From the NCBI GenBank assembly GCA_050290185.1, contig JBNKHE010000002.1, forward strand, positions 64,001-128,000: 64,000 bases of DNA, in the 5' to 3' direction. The notes beneath the pieces are model-generated. The model made no database searches, had not been told where the DNA came from, and was given only the letters and a program-made list of their open reading frames with translations. This document shows, piece by piece, positions 27,883 to 53,375 of the stretch. The number at the start of each line of letters is the position of its first letter. Positions within the stretch are counted from its first letter, which is position 1. This stretch comes from Pontiella sp. (GTDB taxonomy: Bacteria; Verrucomicrobiota; Kiritimatiellia; Kiritimatiellales; Pontiellaceae). A program made the translations under genes and the position numbers.

Positions 27883-29562
<1,680 letters not shown>

Positions 29563-33442: not shown

Positions 33443-34711
33443 TCATTTCCGGCGGATGAGGGCAGAGAAGGCGCCATCGGTTTCGGATTCGGGGGGAAAG
33501 CATTTACTGGTTTTAACCAAGCGGAATTCGGGATGATCGGCAATCCAACGGGCGACGAGGTCTTCGTTTTCCTCGGCTTCGAGGCTGCAGGTGCTGTAAA
33601 CAATCCGGCCCTTTTCGTTCAGTAATGCCGCACAGGCGGTAAGGATCTGATATTGGAGCTCAACAATTTTTTCAATCCGTTCCGGATCAATGCGCCAACG
33701 TGCGTCGGCGCGGCGGCGTAAGACTCCGGTGTTTAGACAGGGCACATCAAGCAGGATAGCGTCGAACTTGCGGTCTCCGAGCGCCTTCGTCGGATTGCGG
33801 GCATCGCCCTGAACGATTTCGATCCAGTCGAGTTTCAGGCGCTTTTTGTTTTCCTTGAGCACGGCAATGCGATCGGCATGCAGATCCATGGCCACCAGTT
33901 CACCGGAACCGGTCATGCGACTGGCCATCATGGCGGCTTTTCCGCCGGGCGCGGCGCAGGCGTCAAACACGGCTTCGCCGGGACGCGGAGCGAGTAGATC
34001 GACGGAGATCGAGGTAGCCGGATCCTGCACGGTAAACCATCCTGCACCGTAGCCAGGCACTTTTTTCACGGCCACGCCGCGCGGCAGGACGAGAAAGATT
34101 TCACGGTCGGAAAAAGGATGCAGCAGCGGCTCGACACCGGCCTCGCGCAGCTTGTCGATGAACTCCGCGGCATCGACGACCGACTGGTCGATGCGCAACG
34201 TGGTGGCGGGCGGCTGGTTGTTCCATTCCGCCAGCGCAAGAGCATCGGCCTCGCCGTATTGCCGGATCCAGCGGTCGAGCAGAAACCTGGGGTGCGATAG
34301 CCGAACATGCGCGGGTTGCTCTTCCAGCGATTTAAGCACGTCGTCGCGTTCGCGCTGGGCGCGGCGCAACACGGCATTGATCATCTTGGCGGCCCCTTCC
34401 CCGCCGGGACGGGCCTTGGCCGCTTCGACCGTTTCGTTGATGGCGGCATACGCATCAACCTCCATAAAGAGGAGTTGGTAGAGTCCGACCTGAAGCACGG
34501 CCTTGAAAAAGGGTTGGGGCGGCTTTTTCAACCATTGCTTTTCCAACCAGTCGAAGATGCTGCGGTTGCGCACGGTTCCGTTAACCATCTCAAGCACAAA
34601 AGCGTGGTCGTCCCTCACCTTGGCGAGTTGGCGGTCCGGGAAGCTCCCATCCACGAGCCATTGGGCGATGATTTCCGCGGCAACGAGCCTGCTATTCCTC
34701 TTTTTGGCCAT
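33443..34711 (-). CDS. rsmB: 16S rRNA m5C967 methyltransferase RsmB/Sun
   Basis: NusB-like N-terminus (AINETVE, INAVLR); DACAAPGGK, LLDVPC, YSTCS..EENE. Confidence 0.92.
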   Translation of the reverse strand: MAKKRNSRLVAAEIIAQWLVDGSFPDRQLAKVRDDHAFVLEMVNGTVRNRSIFDWLEKQWLKKPPQPFFKAVLQVGLYQLLFMEVDAYAAINETVEAAKARPGGEGAAKMINAVLRRAQRERDDVLKSLEEQPAHVRLSHPRFLLDRWIRQYGEADALALAEWNNQPPATTLRIDQSVVDAAEFIDKLREAGVEPLLHPFSDREIFLVLPRGVAVKKVPGYGAGWFTVQDPATSISVDLLAPRPGEAVFDACAAPGGKAAMMASRMTGSGELVAMDLHADRIAVLKENKKRLKLDWIEIVQGDARNPTKALGDRKFDAILLDVPCLNTGVLRRRADARWRIDPERIEKIVELQYQILTACAALLNEKGRIVYSTCSLEAEENEDLVARWIADHPEFRLVKTSKCFPPESETDGAFSALIRRK

Positions 34712-34798: not shown

Positions 34799-34814
34799 TG
34801 GCACATAACCTGCT
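34799..34814 (+). promoter_or_regulatory. Sigma54 (-24/-12) promoter
   Basis: TGGCACATAACCTGCT (GG-N10-GC), 55 bp upstream of ATG 34869. Confidence 0.7.
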
Positions 34815-34868
34815 AAACCTACGAGTAATTATTTTCGAAGAAAATTAACCGAAAAGGATTAGATCCAC

Positions 34869-36221
34869 ATGAAAACGAAAATCAAACCAATGGTATCATG
34901 GAGTATTTGGGCCGGCGGTCTGTCGCTGGTCATGGGTATTGTGACCCGCAATCAGCTGGTAGCCGGATTTCAGGCCGACAACACGGGAATGAGTGCAGTC
35001 ATCGCCGCCGTATTCGGCGCAGGGCTGGTCATCTCCTTTCTGGCAGCCCGTCAACTGCATAAAGAATGGGGCGTGTTGAAGCTGATTTCGGAAACCGACA
35101 CGATTCCGGATTCGAAGAAGGAATCCGATTTGGCCGCCGTATTCAGCAAGCTGGCCTCCTATAAGACCAAGGGCGAAACCGTTGATATCAATGCCGCCAT
35201 CGACACCTACCATTCCAAGCACAATTCGCGGGTACGCTCCGTCTCCATTATTGCGGCTTTGGTCATTTCGATGGGGTTGCTGGGAACGGTCGTTGGCTTG
35301 ATCATGTCGATTTCCGGTCTGGGCGGCATGGTTGAAAACATCGGCCTTTCGCGCACCACGATGATGGAAGCACTCAAGGCTACCGTTGCCGGCATGGGCA
35401 CCGCCTTCTACACCACCTTCTTCGGGGCACTTGGGGGACTGATTCTGCGCGCGGTCGCCGTATCCCAGCTCAACTCGCTATCCGAACTGTGCGCGGAGGC
35501 CACGGAATATGCCGACGCCCACTTGACGACAAAACTTGAAAGCAAGGAAGAAGAGCTCAATCAGAAGGTATCGAAGGTCATCGCCAGCTTTGATGGCATG
35601 CAGAAAGAAATCGAAGCGATCACCGTTCGGATTTCCGAATCCTTTGACTCCACGATGCGTAGTTTTGGCAATGCTCTGGGTGAAGCCGGTGAACATGCCA
35701 TGACCGCAACCAAGGAATGCATCAATGGCATGACCGACCAGATGGCCGTGTTCGGTAGTGAAATCGGCGCCTCATTCGGCACCTTCAATGCATCGGTTGA
35801 AAAAGCCGGCGAGGAGGTGCTCGAAGCCATCGGTACCGTCAATCTATCCATCGAAAAGTCGGGCGAAGAACTGCATAGTGCCTTTGGCGGCCTGAACCAG
35901 TCGCTGGAAACAGCGGGCGAAGGCGTAGCTGAATCGTTCAACGGACTCAACGATACCGTAAAGGAATCGACCGATATAGTCAGCGGATCCCTCGCAGACT
36001 TCAAGCTGAGTATGGATGGCACTTCTCTGGAACTCAAGGACGCTATAGGCGAACTCCACAGCGCCATCAGCGAAGCCACCGGCGAAATGAAGACCCTTTC
36101 CAAGGCTCGGCTCGATGCGGATGCTTCCGAGATCGCCGGCCACCTCTCCGTAGCGGCCACCTCGATCCAGAAGTTCCTGAACACGAAGAATACACACGAC
36201 GAAAACCAGAAGGTGGCGTAA
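34869..36221 (+). CDS. MotA/TolQ/ExbB-family ion-channel subunit with long helical C-terminal tail (ZorA-like architecture)
   Basis: Four TM segments; MGLLGTVVGL and GMGTAFYTTFFG signatures; about 250-aa amphipathic tail. Confidence 0.8.
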   Translation: MKTKIKPMVSWSIWAGGLSLVMGIVTRNQLVAGFQADNTGMSAVIAAVFGAGLVISFLAARQLHKEWGVLKLISETDTIPDSKKESDLAAVFSKLASYKTKGETVDINAAIDTYHSKHNSRVRSVSIIAALVISMGLLGTVVGLIMSISGLGGMVENIGLSRTTMMEALKATVAGMGTAFYTTFFGALGGLILRAVAVSQLNSLSELCAEATEYADAHLTTKLESKEEELNQKVSKVIASFDGMQKEIEAITVRISESFDSTMRSFGNALGEAGEHAMTATKECINGMTDQMAVFGSEIGASFGTFNASVEKAGEEVLEAIGTVNLSIEKSGEELHSAFGGLNQSLETAGEGVAESFNGLNDTVKESTDIVSGSLADFKLSMDGTSLELKDAIGELHSAISEATGEMKTLSKARLDADASEIAGHLSVAATSIQKFLNTKNTHDENQKVA

Positions 36222-37445
36222 ATGCGTGCGGCAACCCGACAGGAAGCAGCCTCCGGATCGGAAGGCGTATACGAGTCCTTCTCGGACATGGTGCTTTGCA
36301 CGGTAATCGTGCTCATCACCCTCGTGGTCGTACTGGCCCTGAATGTGGTACAGCAGCTCAATGTATACATCGAGCCCAACCACTTCAGTGGCGGTGCCAC
36401 CCGACCCTGGCTTTATCTCCAGGCGCAGAATACCGACTATTCAAAAACCTCCTCCGAAGGGCTCTCGCTTGAGCGCGCAGTATACGGGACCCGTCCGTTC
36501 GTGACGGTCAACCTGTTCAGCCCGGTCACGGCCAACTCGACCACCACCGTTCAGGATGGCCAGACCATCTCGGAGAGGGAAGGACAAACCTTCGACGGGC
36601 AGTGCGACCTAACGGCCTATAATTTCCTGCAGCTGGCCGCGGGCATCGAGCCCGGTTCGTTCCCGGTTGCCGGGAACCAGACCGCCCTCATGCTACCCAA
36701 GTTTTCGCACAAGGGCATTCTGGTCGAGTCCGGCGAGTCCAATGGATATATCGCCGAGCCCGACAATGCGCTTGCCTTGAAAGCCATGGCACTGGCATGG
36801 CCCATCTACGGCAATGCGCTCTATGCGCGTCGTGCGGCCAGTGACTACTTGAATGCGCGCACCAAGATCTTCGTCGAGGTTCTTGAATCAACCGACGACC
36901 AGCACCGGATCATGATCGGCCATAGCGTATTCACGCTTCCGCAGGATGTTGAAAACGGCAAGCTCGGCTGGCTGGCTGGTTTTTCTTCCGGCTTGACGGA
37001 AATGGTCTATCTCGGCAAGGCATGGAGCGATCCGGAAAACCAAACCAACAAGCGCATCGATTTCTTTGAAAAGAACGGCTTTGCCGATGCCGCGGCTGAT
37101 TACCGCGCATTCAGTTTCCCCAAGGGGTGGAGCCGGGCGCAACAGGAGCTGTTCGACGTAGCATGGGCCACCAACCCTGCCTTGTCGGAGAAGGCTCTGA
37201 AGCAGTATGCCCGGAACGCGGAGAACCAGATTGCGGTATCGTCGGCAATTATCAGCGGAACGAATGCACAGGAATACCTGCCACCGCTGCTGCGCCACCG
37301 CAATGCCTGGAAGGCCTATACCGATTTCTGCCTCTCACTCTCACAGGAAAGCGGCGATGCACCGCCAACGTGGCTCATGACCGAGTTTCTTGAACCGCTT
37401 GGCTTCGAACAGGCAGTCGTACGGGGTTTGAATACCGACTCCTAG
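36222..37445 (+). CDS. MotB/ExbD/ZorB-like single-TM partner with an unrecognised large C-terminal domain
   Basis: Starts immediately after the partner's stop (TAAATG); YESFSDMVLCTVIVLITLVVVLAL has Asp at the TM start; no OmpA-like motif seen. Confidence 0.65.
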   Translation: MRAATRQEAASGSEGVYESFSDMVLCTVIVLITLVVVLALNVVQQLNVYIEPNHFSGGATRPWLYLQAQNTDYSKTSSEGLSLERAVYGTRPFVTVNLFSPVTANSTTTVQDGQTISEREGQTFDGQCDLTAYNFLQLAAGIEPGSFPVAGNQTALMLPKFSHKGILVESGESNGYIAEPDNALALKAMALAWPIYGNALYARRAASDYLNARTKIFVEVLESTDDQHRIMIGHSVFTLPQDVENGKLGWLAGFSSGLTEMVYLGKAWSDPENQTNKRIDFFEKNGFADAAADYRAFSFPKGWSRAQQELFDVAWATNPALSEKALKQYARNAENQIAVSSAIISGTNAQEYLPPLLRHRNAWKAYTDFCLSLSQESGDAPPTWLMTEFLEPLGFEQAVVRGLNTDS

Positions 37446-38623
37446 AAAACCGCTCCCGGAAACTCTTCCAAAAGCAGCTCGATCTCGAGCTGCTTTTTTT
37501 CTTCCCGCAACAGCTTAAACCGAAGCGTCTCCCCCACCGAATGGTTGAATGTGATGCGCAGAACATCATACTCGTCCTTCACCGGTTTTCCATCCACCTC
37601 AAGAACCTGGTCGCCGACCTGGACCCCCGCGCGATCCGCCGGCGTATCGCGCCATACTTTCGCCACCCTTAAGCGGTGGTCTCCGGAAAACCCGAACGAG
37701 TTGAAGGCGGCACCCACCCATGGCCACTCATGCTTCCCTTTTTCGATCAGTGAGTTGGCAATTACCATCGCCAGATTCGAGGGCACGGCAAAAGCGATTC
37801 CAATGCCCTTCTCCTGCGCCTCAGTCAGGATCGCCGCATTAATCCCGACCAACCGTCCATCCACATCAATCAACGGACCGCCACTGTTCCCTTCGTTAAT
37901 AGCCACATCGGTCTGGATAAAATCCTCATAGGGAAGCACCTGCATACGGCGACCTTTTTGGCTGACATGACCAACGGTAACCGAACTTTGCAGGCTGAAC
38001 GGGGATCCGATCGCAATAACCATTTCCCCGATGCGCAAAGCATCAGAGTTTCCAAACTCCACGGCGGGGAAAACGGCGTCATTGGAATCGCCGGGGGCCG
38101 CGTCAGGAGAGGCGGCACCGTCGCCCTTGATCCTCAACACCGCCAGATCCGTTGCCTTATCGTGCCCCACCTCTTCGGCCTTGAGCTTGGTTCCATCATT
38201 GAGCACGACTTCAATCCACTTCACCCCTTCAATGACATGGTAGCTGGTGATGATATCGCCGCGCTCATCGATGATCACCCCCGACCCTTCGCCGGCCAGT
38301 TGTTCAGGCACATAGCGGTATTCCTGGAGAAATCCGAAAAGGTCGCGCTGTACCAGCTTAAGCACATACTGGGTCTTTTCCGTACGGATCACCACCACGG
38401 ACGGCATCACCTTTTCCACGGCATCCCCCAGCGCATCATTGAGCTCGCGGGCAATGTTGTAGTCGGAGACCGGCCGTTGCCGCGGAGCAAATGAACTGAC
38501 CGGTGCGGGATCAACAGGGGCCAATGCCTGATCGGCCCTATGGCGCCGCCAGGTCGAATGCAATGCACTCGCAATCATCAGGATGCAAAACCCAATCACC
38601 AGCCATTTGTTGCGGCTCTTCAT
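37442..38623 (-). CDS. HtrA/DegS-like trypsin serine protease with one PDZ domain
   Basis: GSGVII, TSYHVI, DLAVL, INEGNSGGPL, TPADRAGVQVGD. Confidence 0.92.
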   Translation of the reverse strand: MKSRNKWLVIGFCILMIASALHSTWRRHRADQALAPVDPAPVSSFAPRQRPVSDYNIARELNDALGDAVEKVMPSVVVIRTEKTQYVLKLVQRDLFGFLQEYRYVPEQLAGEGSGVIIDERGDIITSYHVIEGVKWIEVVLNDGTKLKAEEVGHDKATDLAVLRIKGDGAASPDAAPGDSNDAVFPAVEFGNSDALRIGEMVIAIGSPFSLQSSVTVGHVSQKGRRMQVLPYEDFIQTDVAINEGNSGGPLIDVDGRLVGINAAILTEAQEKGIGIAFAVPSNLAMVIANSLIEKGKHEWPWVGAAFNSFGFSGDHRLRVAKVWRDTPADRAGVQVGDQVLEVDGKPVKDEYDVLRITFNHSVGETLRFKLLREEKKQLEIELLLEEFPGAVF

Positions 38624-41133: not shown

Positions 41134-43233
41134 TTAATCGGATGCGCCGGCATTCAAAAGCCGGGCTTTTTCCACCAGGCGAATGAACTCGGAGCGGTAG
41201 CCTTCCGCATCTTCGCCACGGGCGGTTTTAGCGCGTTCTATGACTTTCCCAAAGCTCGCATTGCCCTTGAATTCGGAGTCACGCAGCAGGAGACCGAATT
41301 CGGCAACCTCGCTGGCGAAACGGAAATTATCCGACGGCCTGCGACCTTCAACATCAGCCGCGGCAACCGTGCGCACCAGCAGCTTGCTCACATCGCTGTC
41401 CGGTTGTTTGTAGCGCAGTTTCACCGTCATCAGGTCATCGCTATCAACCAGCTGTGTCCGCTGGTACATCAGTTCCTCCGCCACCGGAACGGTCTCACCG
41501 GATCCTGCCGGAATCAGCTCGTAGAGCGCGGTCACCGTATGTCCGGCGCCCAGTTCGCCCGCATCTTTTTTATCGTCGTCGAAATCCTCCTTGGCCAACA
41601 TGCGGTTTTCGTAGCCGATCAAACGGTAGGCCTTAATCTGGGCCGGGTTGAATTCCACCTGGATTTTCACATCCTTGGCGATGGTCAGCAGCGTACCGCC
41701 CATTTCGTTGACGAGCGTCTTCTTTGCCTCGAGGATATCGTCGATGTAGGCATAGTTGCCGTTGCCCTTGTCGGCCAGCTTTTCCATCTTGGAATCCTTG
41801 AGATTGCCACGACCGAATCCAAGCACGGTGAGGTAGATCCCGGACTTTCGTTTGTCCTCGATGATACGTACCAGCTCGCCGTCGGAACTGACGCCGATGT
41901 TAAAGTCGCCGTCGGTCGCAAGGATCACGCGGTTGTTGCCGTTCTTGATGAAGCCTTCCTGCGCAGTCCGGTAGGCCAGTTCAATGCCCGCCCCGCCCGC
42001 GGTGGAACCTCCGGCATTCAATCGTTCAATTGCCTCGGCGATCCGTTCCTTGTCGGCGGTCGGCTCCAACACCAGCCCGGCGGCACCGGCATAGACCACG
42101 ATGGAAACCCGGTCCTCGGGCCGAAGCTGATCGACCAGCAGACGCATGGCGGACTTCAACAACGGAAGCTTGTCGGGGCTGTCCATCGATCCGGAAACAT
42201 CCAGCAGGAAAACGAGATTGTTCGACGGGAGATCCCGGGTGTCGACCTTCACGCCCTGCAGCCCCACCATCGCCAGCTGGTGACCATCGTTCCATGGACA
42301 GTCGGCAACCTCCAGCGAGATGGCAAAGGGATCCTCGCCCTCGGGTTCCGGATAGTTATAGTCGAAGTAGTTGATCATCTCTTCGATGCGCACGGCATCG
42401 GGCGGAGGAAGCTGGTTGTCGTTCAGGAAGCGCCGCACATTGGCATAGGCCGCCCGGTCGACATCGATCGAGAACGTCGACAGCGGGTTGTCCATTGCCA
42501 TCTTGAAAGCGTTTTCCGGAATCCAATCATACTGTTCCGTATTGAAATCGGATGCCGCCCGAGCGCGAGAAAAAGCCCCCTCGCGTTTATACTGCACCAC
42601 CCCCGATGCACTGAATCCGTCCGTATCAAACAATGCAAGGCCGTACGTGGAGGACTTATCAGCGACGGCGCTTCCTCCGGCTAGCCTGGGCATACTAACG
42701 ATATCGGACGGCACCTGAACCGGAGCTTCCGCGCCTGCCTGTTTGGACTTCGCCACCACCTGCTTACCCCACTTGGCCTCGGGGATCGGCATCGAGCCTT
42801 TATCCACGGGTACATGGATCTCTTCCCGGGCTATTTCGACCGGCTCTTTCTTGATCGCTACCACCACCGGCTCATGTTTTTTCGGGAAGATATTGAACAC
42901 AACAACACTGCCGGAAATGACGATAAACAGCGACGCCAGCGCACCGGCGGCCAAGGTCGACTTGAACTGCGGGCTGTACCAGATTTTCCCGAACCAGTGG
43001 CCGGACCCGGTCTTTTTGCGATGAATGGCATACCAGGGCTTCAGCGTTTCGGGGGCCGGAGCGCCGGCCAGGGCGTCGCCCAGCAGGGAGAGCGCTACCC
43101 GTTGCGCTTCCAGTTCGGCGCGGCACGCCACGCAGCTTTCCAGATGCTGTTCTAGGGCGCATGATTCGCTTTCACCAAGTTCGCCGTGCATGTAGGCGAC
43201 CAACTGTTTTTCAAATTGATTACATTTTTTCAT
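41134..43233 (-). CDS. Zinc-finger anti-sigma (zf-HC2) - TM - YfbK-type VWA fusion, copy 1
   Basis: HLESCVAC; TM; STFSIDVD, VRIEEMINYFDY, MIDAS DVSGS, LATDGDFN, IAKDVKIQVEFNP, DAGELGAGH. Confidence 0.9.
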   Translation of the reverse strand: MKKCNQFEKQLVAYMHGELGESESCALEQHLESCVACRAELEAQRVALSLLGDALAGAPAPETLKPWYAIHRKKTGSGHWFGKIWYSPQFKSTLAAGALASLFIVISGSVVVFNIFPKKHEPVVVAIKKEPVEIAREEIHVPVDKGSMPIPEAKWGKQVVAKSKQAGAEAPVQVPSDIVSMPRLAGGSAVADKSSTYGLALFDTDGFSASGVVQYKREGAFSRARAASDFNTEQYDWIPENAFKMAMDNPLSTFSIDVDRAAYANVRRFLNDNQLPPPDAVRIEEMINYFDYNYPEPEGEDPFAISLEVADCPWNDGHQLAMVGLQGVKVDTRDLPSNNLVFLLDVSGSMDSPDKLPLLKSAMRLLVDQLRPEDRVSIVVYAGAAGLVLEPTADKERIAEAIERLNAGGSTAGGAGIELAYRTAQEGFIKNGNNRVILATDGDFNIGVSSDGELVRIIEDKRKSGIYLTVLGFGRGNLKDSKMEKLADKGNGNYAYIDDILEAKKTLVNEMGGTLLTIAKDVKIQVEFNPAQIKAYRLIGYENRMLAKEDFDDDKKDAGELGAGHTVTALYELIPAGSGETVPVAEELMYQRTQLVDSDDLMTVKLRYKQPDSDVSKLLVRTVAAADVEGRRPSDNFRFASEVAEFGLLLRDSEFKGNASFGKVIERAKTARGEDAEGYRSEFIRLVEKARLLNAGASD

Positions 43234-43847
43234 GATACCACCCCCGCCTGGCGCAGGCTTTGGGTTAATTTGCGGGTTGCGGAATGGATCAGGGAACCGA
43301 CATAGCCTTCCGAGCGATTGATCACCGAGGCAATCTCCTTGTAGGACATCTCCTCCTGCAAACGCAGGACGAGCACTTCCCGTTCCTTCGGGCGCAGGGA
43401 ACCCAGGTGCTGCAATACCAACGCATGCCGCTCATCTCGATCGCGCCGCTTCTCATCATCATTGGCGGCATAGCGCTCTTCCTGCTTCGACTGCCGGTCA
43501 TGCAAGGACCGCAAGCGAGACTCCTTACGGATAAAGTCGACCGCCGCATTGTGCGTGGTCCGGAACAGCCATCCCTTGATAGGCACACGCCGGTTCATGA
43601 CTTTGTCCCAGTTTTCGTGAAGTCGGATGAACGCTTCCTGCACCACATCCTGGGCCGCATCCTGATTATTCAACACCCGCGTTGCATACCGGAGCAAGGT
43701 TGCCTGATATTGTTCCATAACACCCTCCAGATCCATTGATGCCGTATCCTTAACCGCAGGGGATGGCTCCAAAGGTGATTTATCGGCCTCAGGCTTTGTG
43801 CCGTGGATGATCTCTGTTTTCTTCATGTCCAACGTACCAAATACCAT
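43230..43847 (-). CDS. ECF sigma factor, copy 1
   Basis: AQDVVQEAFIRL, WLFRTTHN, MSYKEIA; ATGA overlap with the anti-sigma-VWA gene. Confidence 0.9.
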   Translation of the reverse strand: MVFGTLDMKKTEIIHGTKPEADKSPLEPSPAVKDTASMDLEGVMEQYQATLLRYATRVLNNQDAAQDVVQEAFIRLHENWDKVMNRRVPIKGWLFRTTHNAAVDFIRKESRLRSLHDRQSKQEERYAANDDEKRRDRDERHALVLQHLGSLRPKEREVLVLRLQEEMSYKEIASVINRSEGYVGSLIHSATRKLTQSLRQAGVVS

Positions 43848-43898
43848 AGGTCGATCCCCTAGTCCATCGGTCCTGTCAATTTACGGACTTCATAGTGG

Positions 43899-43925
43899 AT
43901 ACGCCTTCCGGGTGTATTTTCTTTG
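43899..43925 (-). promoter_or_regulatory. Putative ECF promoter CAAAGA-N16-CGTAT, copy 1
   Basis: Same elements and spacing as 53410-53436. Confidence 0.7.
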
Positions 43926-43946
43926 CGGCGTCCCGAACAATATTTA

Positions 43947-46900
43947 TCACGCGCTCCGTCTCAGACGGCCCAGCCAGCATCCTGAAACCAGAATGAGACC
44001 GGCAGACAGAGCAACCACAACCGTCTGGACCGCACGTCCGCCCCGGGAGGGCGCGGCGCTGAACTTCACTTCCATCTCGGTATCGGACTGGAGCTGCAGC
44101 GTACGCGTGAATCCGAGTCGGGTTCCCTGCTGGGCCATGACCACCCGTATCGGATGGACTTCGACGGCAGCCGCCTGCTGCTGGTCGAGCATGCGTTCCG
44201 CAAGGTTACTCAGTGCACTGCTTTCCTTTTCACCCAATTGCGCCTCGATCTTCTGCACATCGTTACCCGACCATTGCTCGACCGGAACCATTTCGTTGCC
44301 ATCGGTCAGGTTCAGCGACTGCTTCAGCTGGTTGCGGCGGTTAACCAGTCCAACCACACCCTGCTGCCGCACCAGATTGCGGTACTGCACCCGGGCGTCC
44401 TCATTGAGATCCTGCTGTCCCTGCGAGTAGGAGATGGCCTGTTCGAACGCCTTGCGGGCACCGCGCTGATCACCGCTTTCCATGTAGCTGTTGGCCGTCA
44501 CGATGCTTTCCTTGGCGCTGTCGCCAAACTGCTGCGAGGTATCGGCGTTATAGCGGATGTATTCAGCTTCGCTGAAGGTCGCCATGCGCGACTTCCAGGG
44601 GGATGCCGCTTCCTGGTATTCCAGTGTTCCATCAAAGCCGGAATAGCGGTATCCATCCGGTGCATAAAACGTCCAGACCACATCGCGCAGGGGCAGCTTG
44701 AATTGCGGGCCCATAAAATCGAGCTTGCGACCAAACCAACTCTTTTTCCACGACTGGGCATACATGACCTCCACCGCCGCGGACTGGTCTGTCCCGGGTT
44801 CGATAGGAATCAGGTAGAGGCCCTCCTCCACCAGCGGGCGAACCGCAGTCTCGTTGACAAAGACCGACCAGATCTGCGCACCTTCCGGAAGCCGCATTTC
44901 AAGGAAGCGGAGCGCACCGGGATCGAGCGTCATGGCCATGTTGTTGAGGGTCTGGCCGTCCATGGTAATGAGTGAATCGAGCCGGACGGAGCGGACCTGC
45001 GCCGGCAGGACTTCGGCGGCATCATGGCGCACGGCATTGAGCTTCAGGGCATAATCGCGTTCGGTGGCGCGATAGCAGAGTACCGCATCGGACAGATCGC
45101 CGGCACCAAAGCGGTGCGGAATGCTGCGGGCATCCTCGGCTCGCAGCGACTCGGGAACCTCAGCCGGCTTGACCTGCAGGCGTCCACTGGAAAGAACCGT
45201 AATGTAGCCTTTCTGGCTGTCGGTGCCGACTGTCTGCAGCGGATGGATGACGAGTTCTGAATTGTCGTGGGCGAACGGAACCTGATACGCCACTTCCATA
45301 CCGTAGCGGTCTTCAACCTTGCCGTGCAGTTCCACTTCCCAGAGACCCTCTTCCTCATTGATTCTGCGCACCCGGGCAATGTTGCGTCCGGAAACCACCA
45401 GCGCAATGTCCGGACGCGGCGGCTGAAGCAGGAAGGTTTTCACGCCGGCATGCTCGATCTCGTATTGTACATAGCAACGGACCTTGAGCATTCCTTCCGA
45501 AAGCGCAATGCGTTGCAGAACTTCGGTCTTTACCTGGGGTTCGAGCACCTCCGAATGGAGATGGATCGACCAGTCGGGGCGCAACAGCCGGTAGGCCAGG
45601 CTGCCCTCCTGCCGGATACCCATCTCACGCGGATTGATTTCGCTGACGCCATCGCGCAACGCCGGTGTGATCCGGATACCGCGCTCCACAGTTACCCCCA
45701 GGGAGCCTGTATGCTTCAGTACCCCATCGATTCGGATGCGCGGCATCGTGAAATCCGCATCGAGGTCGCGGCCGGATCGGCTGAGCACCAGATTCAGCGG
45801 CACGTCTCCCAGGATCTGGCGCTTGAAGTTGACGACCACCTCACGGGCGGCACTATTCACTTCATCCCAATGACTGATGGCGTCGCCGGTCAGCGAATCG
45901 ACATCAAACCCCTCTGGAATCCGAATACGCAACGAAAAGATTCCGGACTTGCTGACCTTAATATTGAGTCGGCTCGTCATGCGCATCTGCTCAGTGGCGA
46001 TATCCAGGCTCGTGTCTTCGACCAGACGCAGCTCGGGCAGCACCTCGTCGGCCGAAACGTGGGCCGAAAACGGCAAGAGATTGTAGCGGAAGGCCCGCTT
46101 GATCGAGCCCTCGGCGGAAATCTCCAGAAGACGGGCGGCATCGCCGATATTGATTCCGCTCAGTGCATCGACCGACTCGATATCGATCTGAACCGCATCC
46201 GGCGAAGCCATCGCCACCACACCGCGCTGCATGGCGGCCCCCTGAACGGCGATCCCTTGGAGTGTGATATCGTAGGGGAGTTTGTCGCGCGCAATCTGCG
46301 CACCGATCTGCATGCGGTAAGACTCGGTGGCCGGCACCGACAGCACCACTTCCAGCAGGCCGGTATCGGGATCGTAGCGCCAGGTGGCCACTTCGCTGCC
46401 GCGAACCTCCGTAATGCTCATGCCGGCAGGAACATCGAACCGCAGGTTCTGCAACTCGCCCTGTGCAATGTTAAACCGGACATCGTGCCGCAGATCAACC
46501 ATACCGGGTTGGAAGTCGGCCAGCGTGTTGACATCGCAGAAAAAACGCGCCTGCTCCAGATCGGTTTTGCGTTCCTCGGGTTTCCAGCCAAGCGTGCATA
46601 GACTCGTTCGGCTGCCGAACAGCACCTCCGCCCGGACCCCTTCCTGCCGGATGCGGATGGCCTCTTTCGACTGCAGGTTCCATCCTTCGACCGGCAGGGT
46701 AATGACTGCCGCATTTTGCAGGGATGCGGGAATCCAAAGGTTTGCGTTCCATACGCCTTCGTCATAATCCGCTTCCACCAGATAATCGACCGACACCTTG
46801 TATTTCCCACCGCGTTCCACGTGCAGCGTGCATCCGTTTTCATCCTGCACAACCTGCAGACGGCGCGAGGACAGATCGTAGTTCTTAATCACGAAACCGG

Positions 46901-49900
46901 GCCCAAGAAGCTGGAGCGTTTCGCCTTCTTCAGCCTTCATTTCCAGTTCCATGTGCACATTAACATTCACGCGGCTTTCGGTTTCGAACTCCGGCACGGA
47001 AACCGTCAAATCAACGCGTTGCGCCACTGCAGATTTGGGTGTCGACGGTTCTTCCTTGCCCTGTACCGTCGTGCATCCGGCGGCCAAAACCGCCATCACG
47101 GCCAGAATCAGGCCCAACAGCCTGATCTGTACCGAACCCTCCGAACCGGTGGTCGGCATTTCGGGCTGATAGGCGGGCATCTTTTTTTCGCCACGCCGTT
47201 CCGGGTCGCTTTCACCGGACCGGCGACCGGCCAGCCAACAGGTGGTAAACAGCAACGCCAGCGGGAACAGAAGGGTTACCCATGCCAGATAGGGGCTGAA
47301 GGCGCAGACTGCGGCCAGTAACGCAACTGCCGGCATCAGCAGTTTTTGTTTTCGCGTAATCAGCACCCACCCCAGCGGCACCAGGCCCACCAATAACAGC
47401 AGCAGGGTTTGAGCGGCTTCATATCCGGCTCCTACCATTTTAAGATTCACCAACAATCCACCGTCGGAACCGGAAACCGACTTGGTGAAGACCCACTCCG
47501 TCGGTATATCGGCCGATACGGTAAGCATTCCAAGTACAACATACAGCGCCACACCGCCAACCACCAGAACCCCACCCAGCTCAACGAGGACCAGTAAAAA
47601 CCGGATAAAGGAAAAACCACGCAGGCGTCCGCGCAAATACAGCGCAGCAGCCAATAACGCCACGGCAACGATCCAGAAGACCAGCATTTCAGAGCCAAAG
47701 TTCAACAGCATGGCTCCCAGTCCCGTTTTCCGACCGGACAACGGTCCTGGCATTTCCATATTCCCCTTAGCAGAGGCAAGACGTTTCCCGTCCGGCAACC
47801 GGAATGCCCAGCGGGCGAAAACCGCCTGGGCGTCCACTTCAGGGGCCTTGAATTCCATCCAGGAAACCATGCCCGGCTCCTTGAGCTGCTGGGCATAAGT
47901 GATCTCCACCTTGAGCGGAGCGTTGGGATCGCGCCGGCGTTCCACCGGAATCAGTACTTCACCGTCACCACGATCGAGAACCTGGGTCTTGCTCCCCTCC
48001 ACCTTGACAGACCACAGCGATGCATCCTCCGGAAGGCGCATCGAGAAATATTGGCGGTCCGTATTCTTGACGTGATAAACTGCCACGGTGACGGCTTCGC
48101 CGTCCTTGCTGATGGTGGTGTCGAAGGTGGTATGATCCGCCACCTGGGTCAACAGTGGCTGGATTGAGAAACGCTTGATCCGCACCTGCGCCTCGTGCGG
48201 AGTGGCCACATACTTGTAGGCATGCATGATCGTATCGTTGACCAGCAATGCATACTCTTCCGGAATCTCGCCGACATCAATCGGCAGGATGGTCGTATCA
48301 TGCCCGATTTCCTCATCGAGCGAGAGATTGGCGGCACCGGCCAGAGCGATATAGCCCGTTTCATTTTCGATATCCAGCGTTCGAATCCCGCCGAGCAACA
48401 GCTCTTCCCCCTGGTATTTTGCCGGATGATCGTAGGTGACCAGCAACGTGTAGTCGCCGAGTACCTTCTGCTGAAGATGGATCGTCCATTCATCGCCGTC
48501 CCGCGTCCAATTGCGGATATCCCGCCCGTGCAACTCCACATTACGGTATGCCGGCGGAACCCGCAGTGTAAAACTGCGCGTCGGCGCATTGGCTACGTTG
48601 TAGGTGACCAGACAGCTGCCAAATACCCCACTCTCGCCCAGTGAAACCAGCTGGAACGATTCAGCATGGATCGACGATTCCTCCTGGCGGACGCTGACGC
48701 GTCCGGACCAGTCCGGGCTCTTGAACCGGAAAGCCTGCCGCGCATCGGTAATCCGGATCGGCAGCGAGCCGGTATTCACTTCGCGCAACCCGGCAAGGTC
48801 GGTTCCCTCCAGACGGGTTCCCGTTTCGCCACGTAGCACAAGGAAGCCACGCTCGGACCGGGCCCCCGACACCTTGAATGTGGGAATGCCGAAACCCGTG
48901 GCCCCTTCCGGCAGGGTTCTTTCCAGCCGCACCTGAAGTAACGTGCGCGTGTCCACCGCCTTTTTGAAATAGACCTTGATCCAACGCGAACCCTCGCGGT
49001 CGCGCACATCGTAGTCCGCCACGTTCTGGCCTTCCACGGCGGCAACGGTCCAATCCTTCGATACCTCCAGTTCCACCTCCCGGGTGGGTGCGTCGCGAAC
49101 TTCGAGATCGACCTTTGCGTCGACCGAGGCATCAAATTCGCTCAAAGCCAGCACCAACTGATTTTCCGCATCGAGCGAGGTCACAATGTTATCGGCCGTG
49201 AGCTTCATACTGAATGGCATGTTTGCGAACATATAGGCATACAGTCCGCGCGCCGGCCGGCTGAGTGGGTCCCAGTTGATGGCATCCGGTTCCACCTGGG
49301 TCAGTCCACCCAATCCATCGACCAGCAACTTGATGGTGCTGTCCGTGCCCACCAGCACCACGCCGTTGGCGCGGATAACATCCTGCGGCTCAATAACCGG
49401 AAATTCAAAGGAACAGGGAAAATCCGAAAGCGACTGCTCCGCCTGCACCGTCAGAACATATTGTTTTTCGTGGGGACGGCTTAGCTCGACATGCAGCTGG
49501 CGCGCCGTATCGTTTCCACGTACATCCCAGGAGAGAACATCTTCGCCGTTGACCTGGATAATGTTCAGGCCGGCCGGCAGCGCCAGCGAGAGTTCCTTCA
49601 TGCGGCCCTGCGGAATGGTGTAGATAAACTGTCCCTGCAACAACAGGGCGCCGACTTTGGCCGAGCCCACAAAAATGCTGTCGCACGAGGCTACGAGTTC
49701 CCCGGAAAGTTTTTCGAGTTCGGGGCTCCAATCGATCCGTACCGTACCGGTCGGCGGCAGATAGGCCTGAAGGCGTTTTTCGTCGAGTTTCTCCGTGCTC
49801 GGGGCGTTGGCCACCTCGACCTTGTAGCCCTCTTTTTCGGCATCCAGCGTGATTTTTCGCACCGTGGCGGACGGCAGCCCGAAAACCGCCGCCCGCCGCT

Positions 49901-50216
49901 GACCGGAGGAGAAGACCTTGGCTTCAAAATCGATTTCGACGTCCTGCTTGCCGTTCTTGCCAAACTCGATGTAGTAAGTGCCGTCCTCCAGCACCATCTC
50001 CGCACCGCGCGGCAAATCCAGTTTTGTGGGAACCACGCCGCCCTCCAGCACCATGATGCGAACCGGAGCCCCTTCAACCTGCGCCTCGAACGTCATTTTC
50101 AGGGCCAGCTCATCTTCGGAAATTCGGCCTGTCAGTTCTACCTGCTTGATCGCCACATCAGCCACGGCCACACCGGCGAGCAGACACATCAAAAAAACCA
50201 TCCATATACGTTTCAT
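43947..50216 (-). CDS. Giant (2089 aa) hypothetical membrane protein with two homologous halves of repeated beta-rich modules
   Basis: GAGG RBS; signal peptide; repeated modules; central multi-TM block; C-terminal TM plus basic tail. Confidence 0.85.
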   Translation of the reverse strand: MKRIWMVFLMCLLAGVAVADVAIKQVELTGRISEDELALKMTFEAQVEGAPVRIMVLEGGVVPTKLDLPRGAEMVLEDGTYYIEFGKNGKQDVEIDFEAKVFSSGQRRAAVFGLPSATVRKITLDAEKEGYKVEVANAPSTEKLDEKRLQAYLPPTGTVRIDWSPELEKLSGELVASCDSIFVGSAKVGALLLQGQFIYTIPQGRMKELSLALPAGLNIIQVNGEDVLSWDVRGNDTARQLHVELSRPHEKQYVLTVQAEQSLSDFPCSFEFPVIEPQDVIRANGVVLVGTDSTIKLLVDGLGGLTQVEPDAINWDPLSRPARGLYAYMFANMPFSMKLTADNIVTSLDAENQLVLALSEFDASVDAKVDLEVRDAPTREVELEVSKDWTVAAVEGQNVADYDVRDREGSRWIKVYFKKAVDTRTLLQVRLERTLPEGATGFGIPTFKVSGARSERGFLVLRGETGTRLEGTDLAGLREVNTGSLPIRITDARQAFRFKSPDWSGRVSVRQEESSIHAESFQLVSLGESGVFGSCLVTYNVANAPTRSFTLRVPPAYRNVELHGRDIRNWTRDGDEWTIHLQQKVLGDYTLLVTYDHPAKYQGEELLLGGIRTLDIENETGYIALAGAANLSLDEEIGHDTTILPIDVGEIPEEYALLVNDTIMHAYKYVATPHEAQVRIKRFSIQPLLTQVADHTTFDTTISKDGEAVTVAVYHVKNTDRQYFSMRLPEDASLWSVKVEGSKTQVLDRGDGEVLIPVERRRDPNAPLKVEITYAQQLKEPGMVSWMEFKAPEVDAQAVFARWAFRLPDGKRLASAKGNMEMPGPLSGRKTGLGAMLLNFGSEMLVFWIVAVALLAAALYLRGRLRGFSFIRFLLVLVELGGVLVVGGVALYVVLGMLTVSADIPTEWVFTKSVSGSDGGLLVNLKMVGAGYEAAQTLLLLLVGLVPLGWVLITRKQKLLMPAVALLAAVCAFSPYLAWVTLLFPLALLFTTCWLAGRRSGESDPERRGEKKMPAYQPEMPTTGSEGSVQIRLLGLILAVMAVLAAGCTTVQGKEEPSTPKSAVAQRVDLTVSVPEFETESRVNVNVHMELEMKAEEGETLQLLGPGFVIKNYDLSSRRLQVVQDENGCTLHVERGGKYKVSVDYLVEADYDEGVWNANLWIPASLQNAAVITLPVEGWNLQSKEAIRIRQEGVRAEVLFGSRTSLCTLGWKPEERKTDLEQARFFCDVNTLADFQPGMVDLRHDVRFNIAQGELQNLRFDVPAGMSITEVRGSEVATWRYDPDTGLLEVVLSVPATESYRMQIGAQIARDKLPYDITLQGIAVQGAAMQRGVVAMASPDAVQIDIESVDALSGINIGDAARLLEISAEGSIKRAFRYNLLPFSAHVSADEVLPELRLVEDTSLDIATEQMRMTSRLNIKVSKSGIFSLRIRIPEGFDVDSLTGDAISHWDEVNSAAREVVVNFKRQILGDVPLNLVLSRSGRDLDADFTMPRIRIDGVLKHTGSLGVTVERGIRITPALRDGVSEINPREMGIRQEGSLAYRLLRPDWSIHLHSEVLEPQVKTEVLQRIALSEGMLKVRCYVQYEIEHAGVKTFLLQPPRPDIALVVSGRNIARVRRINEEEGLWEVELHGKVEDRYGMEVAYQVPFAHDNSELVIHPLQTVGTDSQKGYITVLSSGRLQVKPAEVPESLRAEDARSIPHRFGAGDLSDAVLCYRATERDYALKLNAVRHDAAEVLPAQVRSVRLDSLITMDGQTLNNMAMTLDPGALRFLEMRLPEGAQIWSVFVNETAVRPLVEEGLYLIPIEPGTDQSAAVEVMYAQSWKKSWFGRKLDFMGPQFKLPLRDVVWTFYAPDGYRYSGFDGTLEYQEAASPWKSRMATFSEAEYIRYNADTSQQFGDSAKESIVTANSYMESGDQRGARKAFEQAISYSQGQQDLNEDARVQYRNLVRQQGVVGLVNRRNQLKQSLNLTDGNEMVPVEQWSGNDVQKIEAQLGEKESSALSNLAERMLDQQQAAAVEVHPIRVVMAQQGTRLGFTRTLQLQSDTEMEVKFSAAPSRGGRAVQTVVVALSAGLILVSGCWLGRLRRSA

Positions 50217-50256: not shown

Positions 50257-52833
50257 TCAATTTTCCAGCCCGGTCGCAATGGAAATCAGCTGTTGCAGTT
50301 CTTGCACCTGGCCATCGAGATTCAGGGCCAGCACAACCGGTTGCATCCGGGCCAGAACATCCGTCATTTCCGTCCCCTCGGTATAGGGACTGCGGCGCAG
50401 CCGTTCGGCAAACTCCGCCACGCAGGCGGCCAGCTGGAACCGCGCATCTGCATCCTCGAAGCGGGCCTTGCGGTAGGAATCCATTACCCGGCTGCTGATC
50501 TCTTCGATAGCGCCGTTGTCGGCCCGGCGATAGCGGACATAGACCGTAGCGATCGGATCTTTTTCCAATCCGTCTGGTTTGAGTTCAACGTCATAAAGCG
50601 CCGTCACGGACTGGCCGGAGCCAACCTCGCCGGCATCTACCGTATCATCGCGGAACTGCTCCTTGGTCAGTTGGCGGTTTTCGTAGCCGAGCTGGCGATA
50701 GCGCAACACGCGGTCGGGATTGAATTCGATCTGGATCTTCACGTCGCTGGCAATTACATGGAGTGTGGAAGCCAACCGGTCAACAAACAGCTGACGGGCT
50801 TCATCCATCGTATCGACATAGGCATACATGCCGTCGCCGCGATTCGCCAGGCGCTCCAGCAGATCGTCGTCGTAGGTTCCCGCCCCGAAGCCGAGCACGG
50901 AAAGATAGATGCCCTTGGTGCGGTAGTCGGCCACCTGCTCCAGAATTGCATCCGGATCCAGCTCGCCCAGATTGGCAACGCCGTCGGACATGATAATGAT
51001 CCGGTTGGAATCGCCGGCTTCGAAACCATCGGACGCCATCAGGTAACCCAGTTCCAATCCCTTGTCGAACTGCGTCGGACCGCCCGGGTGCAGGGCGTTG
51101 ATGGCCGCAAGCAGGTCGGCCTTGTTGCTTACAGGTGTATGCTCGCAAACCAATCGTGCATCGCCGCCAAACTGTACAATCGCCACCTTGTCCTCTGGGT
51201 CGAGATGATCGAGCAGTAGAGACAACGACTGCTTAACCAGACCGAGCCGTTCCGGTGTGCTCATCGAGCCGGAGGTATCGATGACCAGCGTAAGGATGGC
51301 TTTGCGGTGGTCGTCACGCCCGATGCGGCGTCCCTTGATCCCAACCTTGAGTACATCCATGCGCCCCCGGAACGGCGACGGCGCCATTTCGCTGTGCACA
51401 GCAAAAGTCTGCTTGCCGGCGGGCGGGCGGTAATCATAGTCGAAGCTGTTGATGAATTCTTCCGTGCGCACGGCCTCGGTATCCGGCATGGCACCGCCCA
51501 GCAACAGCTGCCGTGCCAGCCCGTACGACGCCGTATCAACATCGATTGAAAATGTGGAGAAGGCATTGTCCGCCGCCATCACGTAGGGATTGAAAACGGC
51601 AGGCTTGCGTTCCCGCGGCGTCACGGCCGCTTCATCCTTGAAGTCAGATCTCCGGGCCCGACTTACATCGTCAGGAATTTTTTTCGCACTCTTTTTCGTT
51701 TCGGATGGATCTGGTGTAATAACATTATCGGCAACTCTTCCCCATGGCTCCGTACTATATGCATCCAGATCCTCGCCCCCGAACAGATCATCCATGCTGT
51801 CACCTGCATCCATGGCCCCTGCGAACAGACCGTCTATGCTATTATCCTTCCCGACTGCGGGAACCGGCTGGGGAAGAGCAGTATCTGTCGTAGGTTCATT
51901 GGCAAACGGATCTCCGTAAGCGTACTGCTCATTTTTATCCTGCGAGCGTCCCGTATCGGAGTCCGACAACGTTGAATACCCGGACAGGTTAACCGACTCG
52001 GTGGCTGGTTCCGGCTCTGTTGAAACCGCATAGCCAAAGACGGACGTTTCGCTGATCTCAGCCCGGTCGACGATTTCCGCTGAGCCTAAACCTGTCCCGC
52101 CTATCAACCCTTCCGAGGTTCCTTCCAGATCCGGCATCTGTATTTCGGGCATAGACCGGGTTTTCACCTTTGCCACAATGCGCGAGGAGGGCTTGGGCTG
52201 GGCGCTCTTGACCACCTTCACCTTGGGTTTCTTGAGCATCATCTTCGGCCGCTCCACCGCCGCCGCGGCAAAGGTTTGGTCCGGCACATCCTTATCCGCG
52301 TGACCACCCTCTGCACCGAAGAAATCCTGTGAATAGTCGTCCATTACGTCCACTTTGGGCTTTACCACCACCGATCTGCGTAGCTTGGGCGTTGCTTTTA
52401 TCTCGTCGGAGACCTGTAACTTGTTCAACTTCATTCTGGGGCGCTGTACCGGGGCCGCTTCGAAAGAAACCTCACTCTTTTGCACCACCTGAACCATGAC
52501 AAAGCTCATCGAAACCATGATAAACAAAGCAGCTATGACTCCGGTGACTAGTGCTGCCTTGAACTGCGGGCTGACCCAGATGCGGGCAAAGGCATTGGTG
52601 CGGATATCGACTTTCCTTACGGGCAGATGCCGCCATGCGGACATGCGGACGGGAGTGGGCACCGCAGCCATGACCTTGCCCGCCAACCGAAACGTCGTGT
52701 TCAGTACTTCAAGTTCGGCCCGGCAAGACGCGCAGCTTTCCAGATGGGCCCGCAGGGCATGGTAGTCCCGCTCGTACAACTCGCCATGCAGATAACCCGG
52801 CAGCAGTTTTTCAAATCGTTTGCATTCCTTCAT
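50257..52833 (-). CDS. Zinc-finger anti-sigma - TM - long linker - YfbK-type VWA fusion, copy 2
   Basis: Start MKECKRFEK; HLESCASC; TM; STFSIDVDTASY, MIDAS DTSGS, IASDVKIQIEFNP, DAGEVGSG. Confidence 0.9.
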   Translation of the reverse strand: MKECKRFEKLLPGYLHGELYERDYHALRAHLESCASCRAELEVLNTTFRLAGKVMAAVPTPVRMSAWRHLPVRKVDIRTNAFARIWVSPQFKAALVTGVIAALFIMVSMSFVMVQVVQKSEVSFEAAPVQRPRMKLNKLQVSDEIKATPKLRRSVVVKPKVDVMDDYSQDFFGAEGGHADKDVPDQTFAAAAVERPKMMLKKPKVKVVKSAQPKPSSRIVAKVKTRSMPEIQMPDLEGTSEGLIGGTGLGSAEIVDRAEISETSVFGYAVSTEPEPATESVNLSGYSTLSDSDTGRSQDKNEQYAYGDPFANEPTTDTALPQPVPAVGKDNSIDGLFAGAMDAGDSMDDLFGGEDLDAYSTEPWGRVADNVITPDPSETKKSAKKIPDDVSRARRSDFKDEAAVTPRERKPAVFNPYVMAADNAFSTFSIDVDTASYGLARQLLLGGAMPDTEAVRTEEFINSFDYDYRPPAGKQTFAVHSEMAPSPFRGRMDVLKVGIKGRRIGRDDHRKAILTLVIDTSGSMSTPERLGLVKQSLSLLLDHLDPEDKVAIVQFGGDARLVCEHTPVSNKADLLAAINALHPGGPTQFDKGLELGYLMASDGFEAGDSNRIIIMSDGVANLGELDPDAILEQVADYRTKGIYLSVLGFGAGTYDDDLLERLANRGDGMYAYVDTMDEARQLFVDRLASTLHVIASDVKIQIEFNPDRVLRYRQLGYENRQLTKEQFRDDTVDAGEVGSGQSVTALYDVELKPDGLEKDPIATVYVRYRRADNGAIEEISSRVMDSYRKARFEDADARFQLAACVAEFAERLRRSPYTEGTEMTDVLARMQPVVLALNLDGQVQELQQLISIATGLEN

Positions 52834-53375
52834 GATACCACCCCCGCCTTGCGCAGGCTTTGGGTTAGCTTTTTTGAAGCGGTATGGATCAGGGTGCCGA
52901 CATACCCTTCCGTGCGGTTGAGCACCCCGGCGATATCCCTGTAGCTCATTCCATCCAGCAACCGCAGCACCAGCACTTCGCGCTCCCGGGGCTTGAGTGT
53001 GTTGATGTGCTGGAACACGAGGGCCTCGCACTCATCCAGATAGTCACGTACTGCATGATCGCACCGGTTAGCGGGATCATGTGAAAGTTGCTTGTGCAGC
53101 AGACGCAGACGGGATTCTTTGCGGATATAATCGACCGAAACATTGTGGGTGGTGCGGTACAGCCACCCCTTTAATGATCCCTCCTGTTTCCGGAGACGTC
53201 CCCAGTTTCCATGCAGACGGATAAACACCTCCTGAACGATATCCTGGGCGGCATCGGCATTGTTCAGCACACGGGATGCGTAGCGCAACAGGACAGACTG
53301 GTACATTTCGATCGCCGCCTCCAAATCAAGTTTATCCGGCTCCCCGCCCTTGAGCCCTTGGATGTCATCGCTCAT
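52830..53375 (-). CDS. ECF sigma factor, copy 2
   Basis: AQDIVQEVFIRL, WLYRTTHN, MSYRDIA; paralog of 43230-43847. Confidence 0.9.
   Translation of the reverse strand: MSDDIQGLKGGEPDKLDLEAAIEMYQSVLLRYASRVLNNADAAQDIVQEVFIRLHGNWGRLRKQEGSLKGWLYRTTHNVSVDYIRKESRLRLLHKQLSHDPANRCDHAVRDYLDECEALVFQHINTLKPREREVLVLRLLDGMSYRDIAGVLNRTEGYVGTLIHTASKKLTQSLRKAGVVS

Follow-up and report, generated by a model that had tools for sequence, protein, structure and literature searches.

A putative MotA/ExbB/ZorA-family envelope motor of Pontiella with a predicted ExbD-like core and a PEGA-repeat lipoprotein partner

The window analyzed here, that is, the whole 64,000-nucleotide stretch of a Pontiella sp. contig, encompasses two abutting genes, A and B, that we predict to belong to a hitherto undescribed envelope machine of three parts; the probable third component, the lipoprotein C, is co-inherited and co-lost with them. 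Very probably, A and B make up a working motor of the A5B2 type; the 5:2 stoichiometry and the rotation would follow from family membership. An earlier note on this DNA proposed an undescribed motor of the MotA/ExbB/ZorA family, a reading that the present analysis supports, together with the conservation of its sigma54 promoter. The description of this motor as an orphan two-gene system, however, is not supported: a PEGA-repeat lipoprotein is encoded in the same operon in paralogs and, for the copy in the window, is co-regulated and co-lost in trans. To our knowledge, known 5:2 motors either have the B axle on peptidoglycan via an OmpA-like domain or work with a TonB/TolA-type transducer.

A conserved chromosomal gene pair

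In the open reading frame (ORF) map, the ATG of B comes immediately after the stop codon of A, and the coordinates agree with the earlier description of a directly abutting pair lying alone between rsmB and htrA (Table 1). As also claimed, no zorC/D/E, tonB or flagellar genes are adjacent, the flanks being rsmB and htrA. Gene A is located directly 5' of B in 28 of the 29 orthologous loci, the 29th being interrupted by a contig end. The rsmB gene lies 5' of A in 22/29 of these loci and htrA lies 3' of B in 22/29, with both flanks present in 20/29; the loci without the expected flanks are mostly on short contigs, with few rearrangements. In the 14 loci taken from genomes that lack this A-B copy, rsmB and htrA are adjacent in every case. 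The A-B locus is chromosomal and syntenic.

Elsewhere in the window, positions 41134-50216 (minus strand) encode an ECF sigma factor, a YfbK-type vWA protein to which a zinc-finger anti-sigma factor is fused, and a membrane protein of 2089 aa that matches no Pfam family; a similar sigma/vWA pair is apparently repeated near 50257-53031. At 27883-29562 (plus strand), an RpiB-like domain is fused to serine hydroxymethyltransferase (identified by eye), an arrangement conserved in relatives.

Table 1. Features of the A-B locus, its flanks and the separately encoded lipoprotein C1 (positions in the window unless a contig is given)
Feature	Position	Strand	Remarks
sigma54 (-24/-12) promoter motif	34799-34814	+	70 nt 5' of gene A
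Gene A, MotA/ExbB/ZorA-like ring subunit	34869-36221	+	450 aa; PF01618 match
Predicted ion-filter residues of A (G136, T140, A179, T182, T183)	35274-35417	+	
Tail of A (predicted to be cytoplasmic, helical and amphipathic)	35469-36218	+	~250 aa
Gene B, single-TM axle subunit	36222-37445	+	407 aa; Asp22 codon 36285-36287
ExbD/TolR-like core of B (predicted)	36855-37427	+	residues ~212-267 and 383-402
rsmB-like methyltransferase	33443-34711	-	flank, outside the system
htrA/degP-like protease	37442-38623	-	convergent flank, outside the system
C1, stand-alone PEGA-repeat lipoprotein of G000 (genome under study)	G000:C7:101225-102571 (L105:1501-2844)		448 aa

The ring subunit A: ZorA-like tail and predicted ion filter

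The assignment of A to the MotA/TolQ/ExbB-type subunits is borne out by an above-threshold match to Pfam MotA_ExbB (PF01618; residues 107-185, E = 7.7e-9, 35.8 bits versus a cut-off of 22.9), by the presence of both the GLLGTV and the AFYTT motifs and by a tail of ~250 aa. Of the four transmembrane (TM) segments claimed for A, a hydropathy scan at a threshold of 1.6 recovered two (residues 39-63 and 121-155) and did not call the other two. The family alignment contains conserved Gly-rich hydrophobic stretches at residues ~9-27 and ~175-197, and A is plausibly a four-TM protein judging from its sequence. The tail (residues ~201-450) is amphipathic, with a period of 3.62, and yields apolipoprotein-like and ZorA-tail matches; its length varies, the whole protein ranging from 346 to 602 aa among relatives. 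When compared to the PDB, the family profile of A shows its best motor match to 8VVN_C (E = 1.9e-7), spanning both the TM region and the tail, and also matches the ZorA tail of 8QYD (8QYD_A, E = 1.9e-6). The PADLOC ZorA models match A with E-values down to 9e-8 and a paralog with 1e-12, and the NCBIfam ZorA models score 16-24 bits against cut-offs of 100-700.

Five residues, G136, T140, A179, T182 and T183, are invariant in all 34 aligned A proteins, including distant tailless ones, with a spacing identical to that of G154, T158, A182, T185 and T186 in PomA. According to the accessible part of PMC10374538, these PomA residues coordinate Na+, and H+ stators have Ala at two of the positions; in the part of PMC11946911 available to us, ZorA is described as having only Thr147 and Ser184 and hence is judged to be probably proton-driven. 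Because the three-Thr motif has the spacing of PomA, ZorA lacks the extra polar residue, and the genome under study encodes NqrB (nqrB), we consider Na+ to be the probable coupling ion, with moderate confidence.

The axle subunit B: a predicted, elaborated ExbD-type protein

Protein B contains a single TM segment (by hydropathy), with an SFSD motif at its start. The Asp of this motif, Asp22, on which the motor reading of the earlier note leaned, is invariant in 45/45 aligned family members. In a set of 197 B proteins, the TM pattern includes Asp in 153 and Asn in 6 that form one distant group, with no match in 38, mostly fragments. The Asn-bearing relatives (P0121, P0124, P0125, P0127, P0151 and P0164) are full-length and keep the upstream Glu; they may represent a variant that is uncoupled from ions or coupled in another way.

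Searches of B against Pfam, NCBIfam and PADLOC returned nothing at E<=1, and the TM motif gave weak matches to 8VVN_B, 8VVI_A and ExbD (E = 0.003-0.6). The large domain previously described as unrecognized may be placed tentatively through the AlphaFold2 model of B (mean pLDDT 85.9), in which the C-terminal core overlays ExbD/TolR. In this model, the core is split by a helical insert of ~115 aa, and residues 57-205 form an additional domain. When the C-terminal half of the model was compared to 858 chains, six ExbD/TolR entries ranked 2, 3, 4, 5, 7 and 17, with overlays covering nearly the whole ExbD domain; in an unbiased search of 48,161 chains, TolR and ExbD were, within the top 50, the sole rows spanning the beta core of B. 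In view of this overlay of the predicted core, we read B, most probably, as a subunit of ExbD type with extensive elaborations. The absence of an OmpA-like anchor from B is also supported: there is no OmpA match to the whole of B in Pfam, NCBIfam or PADLOC, and the C-terminal core aligns with ExbD/TolR in the predicted model. Nor did B match a VWA model of Pfam.

A PEGA-repeat lipoprotein as the probable third component

Paralogous loci, the B proteins of which are ~42% and 26% identical to the B studied here, have the gene order A-B-C, the third gene coding for a PEGA-repeat lipoprotein, C, that follows B in 15/15 cases. One paralog, in L051, has lost both A and the Asp of B (L051:8147-10530; B2 without the Asp, C2 intact, no A2 upstream). 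In the genome under study, C1, the C protein that accompanies the copy in the window (A1-B1), is encoded between phoH and the pyruvate:ferredoxin oxidoreductase gene and has a lipobox Cys (Cys24) and, by inspection, six GxTP-marked repeats. This genome has lost the paralogous A-B-C operon, and only a degraded fragment of the paralogous PEGA lipoprotein is left at that site, between apt and an rsgA-like gene (G000:C2:34784-35246).

Among 52 genomes of the genus, full-length C1 and intact B1 occur together in 31, B1 only in 2 (71% and 78% complete), C1 only in none, and neither in 19; this count omits G328, in which B1 is broken and C1 is cut by a contig end, and carries no p-value because kin are non-independent and the genomes incomplete. 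The distribution of B1 is matched less closely by two control genes of the same putative regulon (28/5/3/16 and 29/4/6/13 in the same order). Short relics of C1 persist in five genomes (G006, G014, G015, G019 and G338), all without A1-B1. In G330, C1 and A1 are arranged head to head, with their sigma54 sites back-to-back, and the distance between the two genes is ~4.5 kb in G304 and ~5.7 kb in G342, a similar pair. Conservation reaches 95% in the last 16 residues of C1, versus 75% in the body of the protein, and each group of C paralogs has its own conserved tail. The named homologs of C all come from Kiritimatiellales or Verrucomicrobia.

Altogether, C is very likely part of the system. The linked third protein is a lipobox-Cys PEGA lipoprotein and not a TonB/TolA-type transducer with an inner-membrane helix, and no tonB or tolA was seen in the loci. 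By analogy with ExbD and TonB, we lean slightly toward direct binding of C by B. We infer that C is sorted to the outer membrane and that its six repeats would form a rod of ~20 nm, long enough to span the periplasm, a rough estimate from the general domain size.

Several further genes were noticed around these loci. Several paralog-2 loci (L046:8154-8804, L048, L049:11762-12403) encode, after C, a 213-aa secreted protein that has paired CxxC motifs and no Pfam or PADLOC match. Just past the oxidoreductase gene adjoining C1, two small paralogous proteins are encoded behind a sigma54-like site (G000:C7:106400-107115, minus strand). In G000:C8:107500-118800, a Tad/Flp-like pilus locus is followed by genes for an FHA protein and for a PEGA protein of 466 aa that is distinct from C1, widespread and independent of A-B.

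A conserved sigma54 promoter and a putative regulon

The apparent sigma54 promoter upstream of A is conserved in orthologs: among orthologous loci with at least 100 nt of upstream sequence, the pattern TGGYMY-N6-TGC is located 68-93 nt 5' of A in 26/26, and a stricter pattern is found in 24/26 versus 0.03 per set in shuffles. The motif was found 5' of A in 0/11 paralogous loci. Paralogous operons (L045-L050, L054) share in its place a TGCCATA motif upstream of A, possibly an extended -10 element as judged from its sequence. A TGG-N9-TGC site precedes C1 in 30/30 orthologs, compared with 0.6 per set in shuffles; a narrower pattern is present in 14/30. The genome under study contains rpoN, and 7/10 genomes without A1-B1 retain it.

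The genome under study also encodes a PilS/PilR-like pair and contains sigma54-like sites before pilM, a secretin operon, a pilT-like gene, pilins and an MshEN-TPR gene, as well as before an autotransporter gene, mreB and nitrogen genes; the pilT, mreB, nif and nitrate labels are based on reading the sequence rather than on family models, and the sites are those of G000. Genes for PilQ and PilB-type proteins are kept in 5/5 genomes without A-B. Therefore, the motor is an accessory, and A-B-C is not needed to build pili. Another sigma54-like site precedes the gene for a 259-aa protein X, followed by that for an acidic-tailed membrane protein (G000:C4:128800-130751, L103:2801-4752, minus strand); protein X tracks A-B loosely (28/33 vs 3/19) and is a candidate partner of the A tail.

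Vertical inheritance, repeated loss and distant tailless relatives

Relatives of B number 109 in the 90% collection and 90 among the 50% representatives, 38 of these at E<=1e-30, and the named members of the cluster include Desulfobulbaceae, Leptospiraceae and Planctomycetota. Within the genus, B is present in 42/53 genomes and A in 42/53, with the same 11 negative; in a sample of the phylum, 8/301 genomes match, comprising 6 in the genus and 2 marginal matches with stops. The absences of A1-B1 are scattered over the RsmB tree (35 rows), forcing at least 5 changes, with 7-10 in bootstraps. Because the loci are syntenic, rsmB and htrA adjoin where A-B is absent, and the losses are scattered over the tree, the pair looks vertically inherited and repeatedly lost. 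Judging by the named homologs, A-B-C occurs in cultured Pontiella species, and the three-gene operonic paralog would lend itself to expression as a single construct.

Scanning metagenomes for the YESFSDL motif retrieved 31 loci. By eye, the 26 listed ones encode a tailless A of ~260 aa, often followed by two B genes, the neighbors being FHA and kinase-like genes in some cases and small lipoprotein-like genes in others; the proteins carry the invariant residues of A and the N-terminal and C-terminal motifs of B. Given the tailless A in these distant loci, the tail and C are, as far as seen, features of the Pontiella branch. In the tailless-A family (L067-L096), with its frequently doubled B, the kinase-like neighbors are of the Ser/Thr type and the lipoprotein-like ones are glycine-rich; L068 and L071 lie near type VI secretion-like genes (by eye), and one clade of B contains a PDZ insert.

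Proposed mechanism and alternatives

We propose that A and B would assemble in the inner membrane into a rotary A5B2 motor powered by ion flow, probably of Na+. The ExbD-like heads of B would grip the conserved C-terminal tail of C by beta-strand capture, as ExbD does with the D-box of TonB; the ExbD dimer is reported to capture a short beta-prone TonB motif (PMC10907165; 10.1101/2023.08.11.552980, accessible parts). The lipid anchor and repeat rod of C would then tether the B axle to the outer membrane, and ion flow would turn the A ring, with its long cytoplasmic tail, against the tethered axle. Because C does not have an inner-membrane helix like those of TonB and TolA, it would take the place of the peptidoglycan anchor that MotB and ZorB have; in Zorya, according to the available part of PMC11946911, peptidoglycan holds the B subunit, and rotation is proposed for the A ring and its tail. 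The job of the machine would most likely be that of an accessory mechanical link or a sensor of envelope or surface contact within a sigma54 program that includes type IV pilus genes.

We regard an A5B2 motor with B heads gripping the C tail, the outer membrane tied to the axle and a sigma54 program as the best explanation of the data and give it an even chance of being right. The fuller reading, in which the system would represent a separate class of trans-envelope rotary machines, is advanced tentatively: a non-flagellar 5:2 motor, driven by Na+ and equipped with a ZorA-like tail, would have its ExbD-derived axle held at the outer membrane by a PEGA lipoprotein rod, in place of peptidoglycan or a TonB/TolA, and act as a surface-contact sensor or actuator, and a surface- or pilus-linked role is likewise a possibility that we entertain with less than even confidence.

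Alternatively, the complex could be an energizer of the Ton/Tol/SiiAB kind that exerts force outward through C on an outer-membrane client, such as a secretin or an adhesin of the autotransporter type, or keeps the outer membrane in position, with the A tail serving as a mere cytoplasmic anchor or localization signal. We consider this unlikely. In its favor, a large gene follows C in the four clade-3 loci, one with a Pfam autotransporter barrel and another without a match, and a sigma54-like site lies before an autotransporter gene in G000; however, the autotransporter family does not track A-B, with relatives in 46/53 genomes. The ExbD-like head in the predicted model of B and the precedent of SiiAB (10.1101/641415, accessible part) fit an energizer, but C is devoid of the inner-membrane helix and linker of TonB/TolA, and seven ordinary ExbB/TolQ genes are present separately in the genome.

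An improbable alternative is a Zorya-like anti-phage envelope sensor, the tail of which recruits effectors encoded elsewhere. Matches to Zorya exist for A, the closest solved motor relatives of which are ZorA-type and which the PADLOC models detect (see above), and the TM motif of B is ZorB-like, yet no ZorB, ZorC, ZorD or ZorE model matches B, C or the neighbors tested; models of the Zorya effectors (zorC/D/E/F/G) had no match among 11 neighbor or partner proteins, although effectors may still be encoded in trans, the genome-wide PF15611 search having had no positive control. The patchy, repeated loss is typical of defense genes, but the housekeeping position is fixed, with both flanks in the majority of loci, the sigma54 promoter is dedicated, and B lacks an OmpA-type match. 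Assignment of the system to Zorya thus fails, given no OmpA match, no adjacent effectors and scores far below cut-off.

The AglRQS layout consists of one A and two B genes. A surface-motility motor of this kind, with MreB or another cytoplasmic track engaged by the A tail and an adhesin of the outer membrane pulled along by B-C, is highly improbable: the ExbD/TolR-type B, the distant relatives with one A and two B genes, the sigma54-like site upstream of mreB and the failure to find FliG (PF01706) in G000 (95.5% complete; control positive in 4/14 genomes) are compatible with it, but that mreB site comes from a single genome, and no Glt-like gene set lies beside any locus examined.

A tethered-axle motor, if real, would add a third mode of coupling ion flow, possibly of Na+, across the envelope; it would also assign a role to PEGA-repeat lipoproteins and provide an evolutionary connection between motors of the Zorya and Ton/Tol types. 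The system further suggests that tails of the ZorA type have uses beyond phage defense.

Comparison with known systems

We found no description of this A-B-C system in the literature covered, which included few subscription papers and, for PMC12505986 and PMC12204202, the articles without their supplements. The accessible part of PMC12505986 notes in general terms non-flagellar homologs with large periplasmic domains, and that of PMC11890865 makes no mention of orphan ZorAB. The comparisons below refer to the accessible parts of the papers cited.

The system resembles ZorAB in its MotA-type ring subunit, which extends into a long helical tail in the cytoplasm that varies in length (PMC11946911, PMC11890865), and in the SFSD-type start of the B TM segment with its essential Asp. 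Unlike ZorAB, B has a predicted ExbD-like core and no match to a peptidoglycan-binding OmpA-type domain; the filter contains three Thr residues instead of Thr/Ser; and there are no adjacent soluble effectors but rather a housekeeping location, a sigma54 promoter and a lipoprotein partner. The TolQ-like motors with TPH-vWA partners are, similarly, uncharacterized 5:2-type motors predicted in PVC and other phyla (PMC12204202), but B here has no vWA match and overlays ExbD instead in the predicted model; the main text of that paper on vWA-bearing motors, in its accessible part, does not mention PEGA or Kiritimatiellota. SiiAB, also a non-flagellar ion channel pair with an envelope or adhesion function (10.1101/641415), differs in that SiiA has an OmpA-like domain and lies within a type I secretion operon.

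Assignment to the flagellar stators or to Ton/Tol, the latter given no TonB/TolA-type transducer, fails as well. With the PomAB Na+ stator, the system shares the G/T/A/T/T filter with identical spacing and, probably, the four-TM architecture of A (PMC10374538), whereas here no FliG was found in the genome, no OmpA-type domain was detected and A has a long tail. With ExbBD-TonB and TolQR-TolA, it would share an ExbD/TolR-like periplasmic core, predicted here from the model of B (PMC10907165; 10.1101/2023.08.11.552980), a periplasm-spanning third protein and a short conserved beta-prone motif that the B dimer could capture. Compared to ExbBD and TolQR, however, ExbD is a third the size of B, and A carries a 250-aa tail; and where TonB and TolA consist of an inner-membrane helix, a linker and a C-terminal domain, C combines an N-terminal lipid anchor with PEGA repeats.
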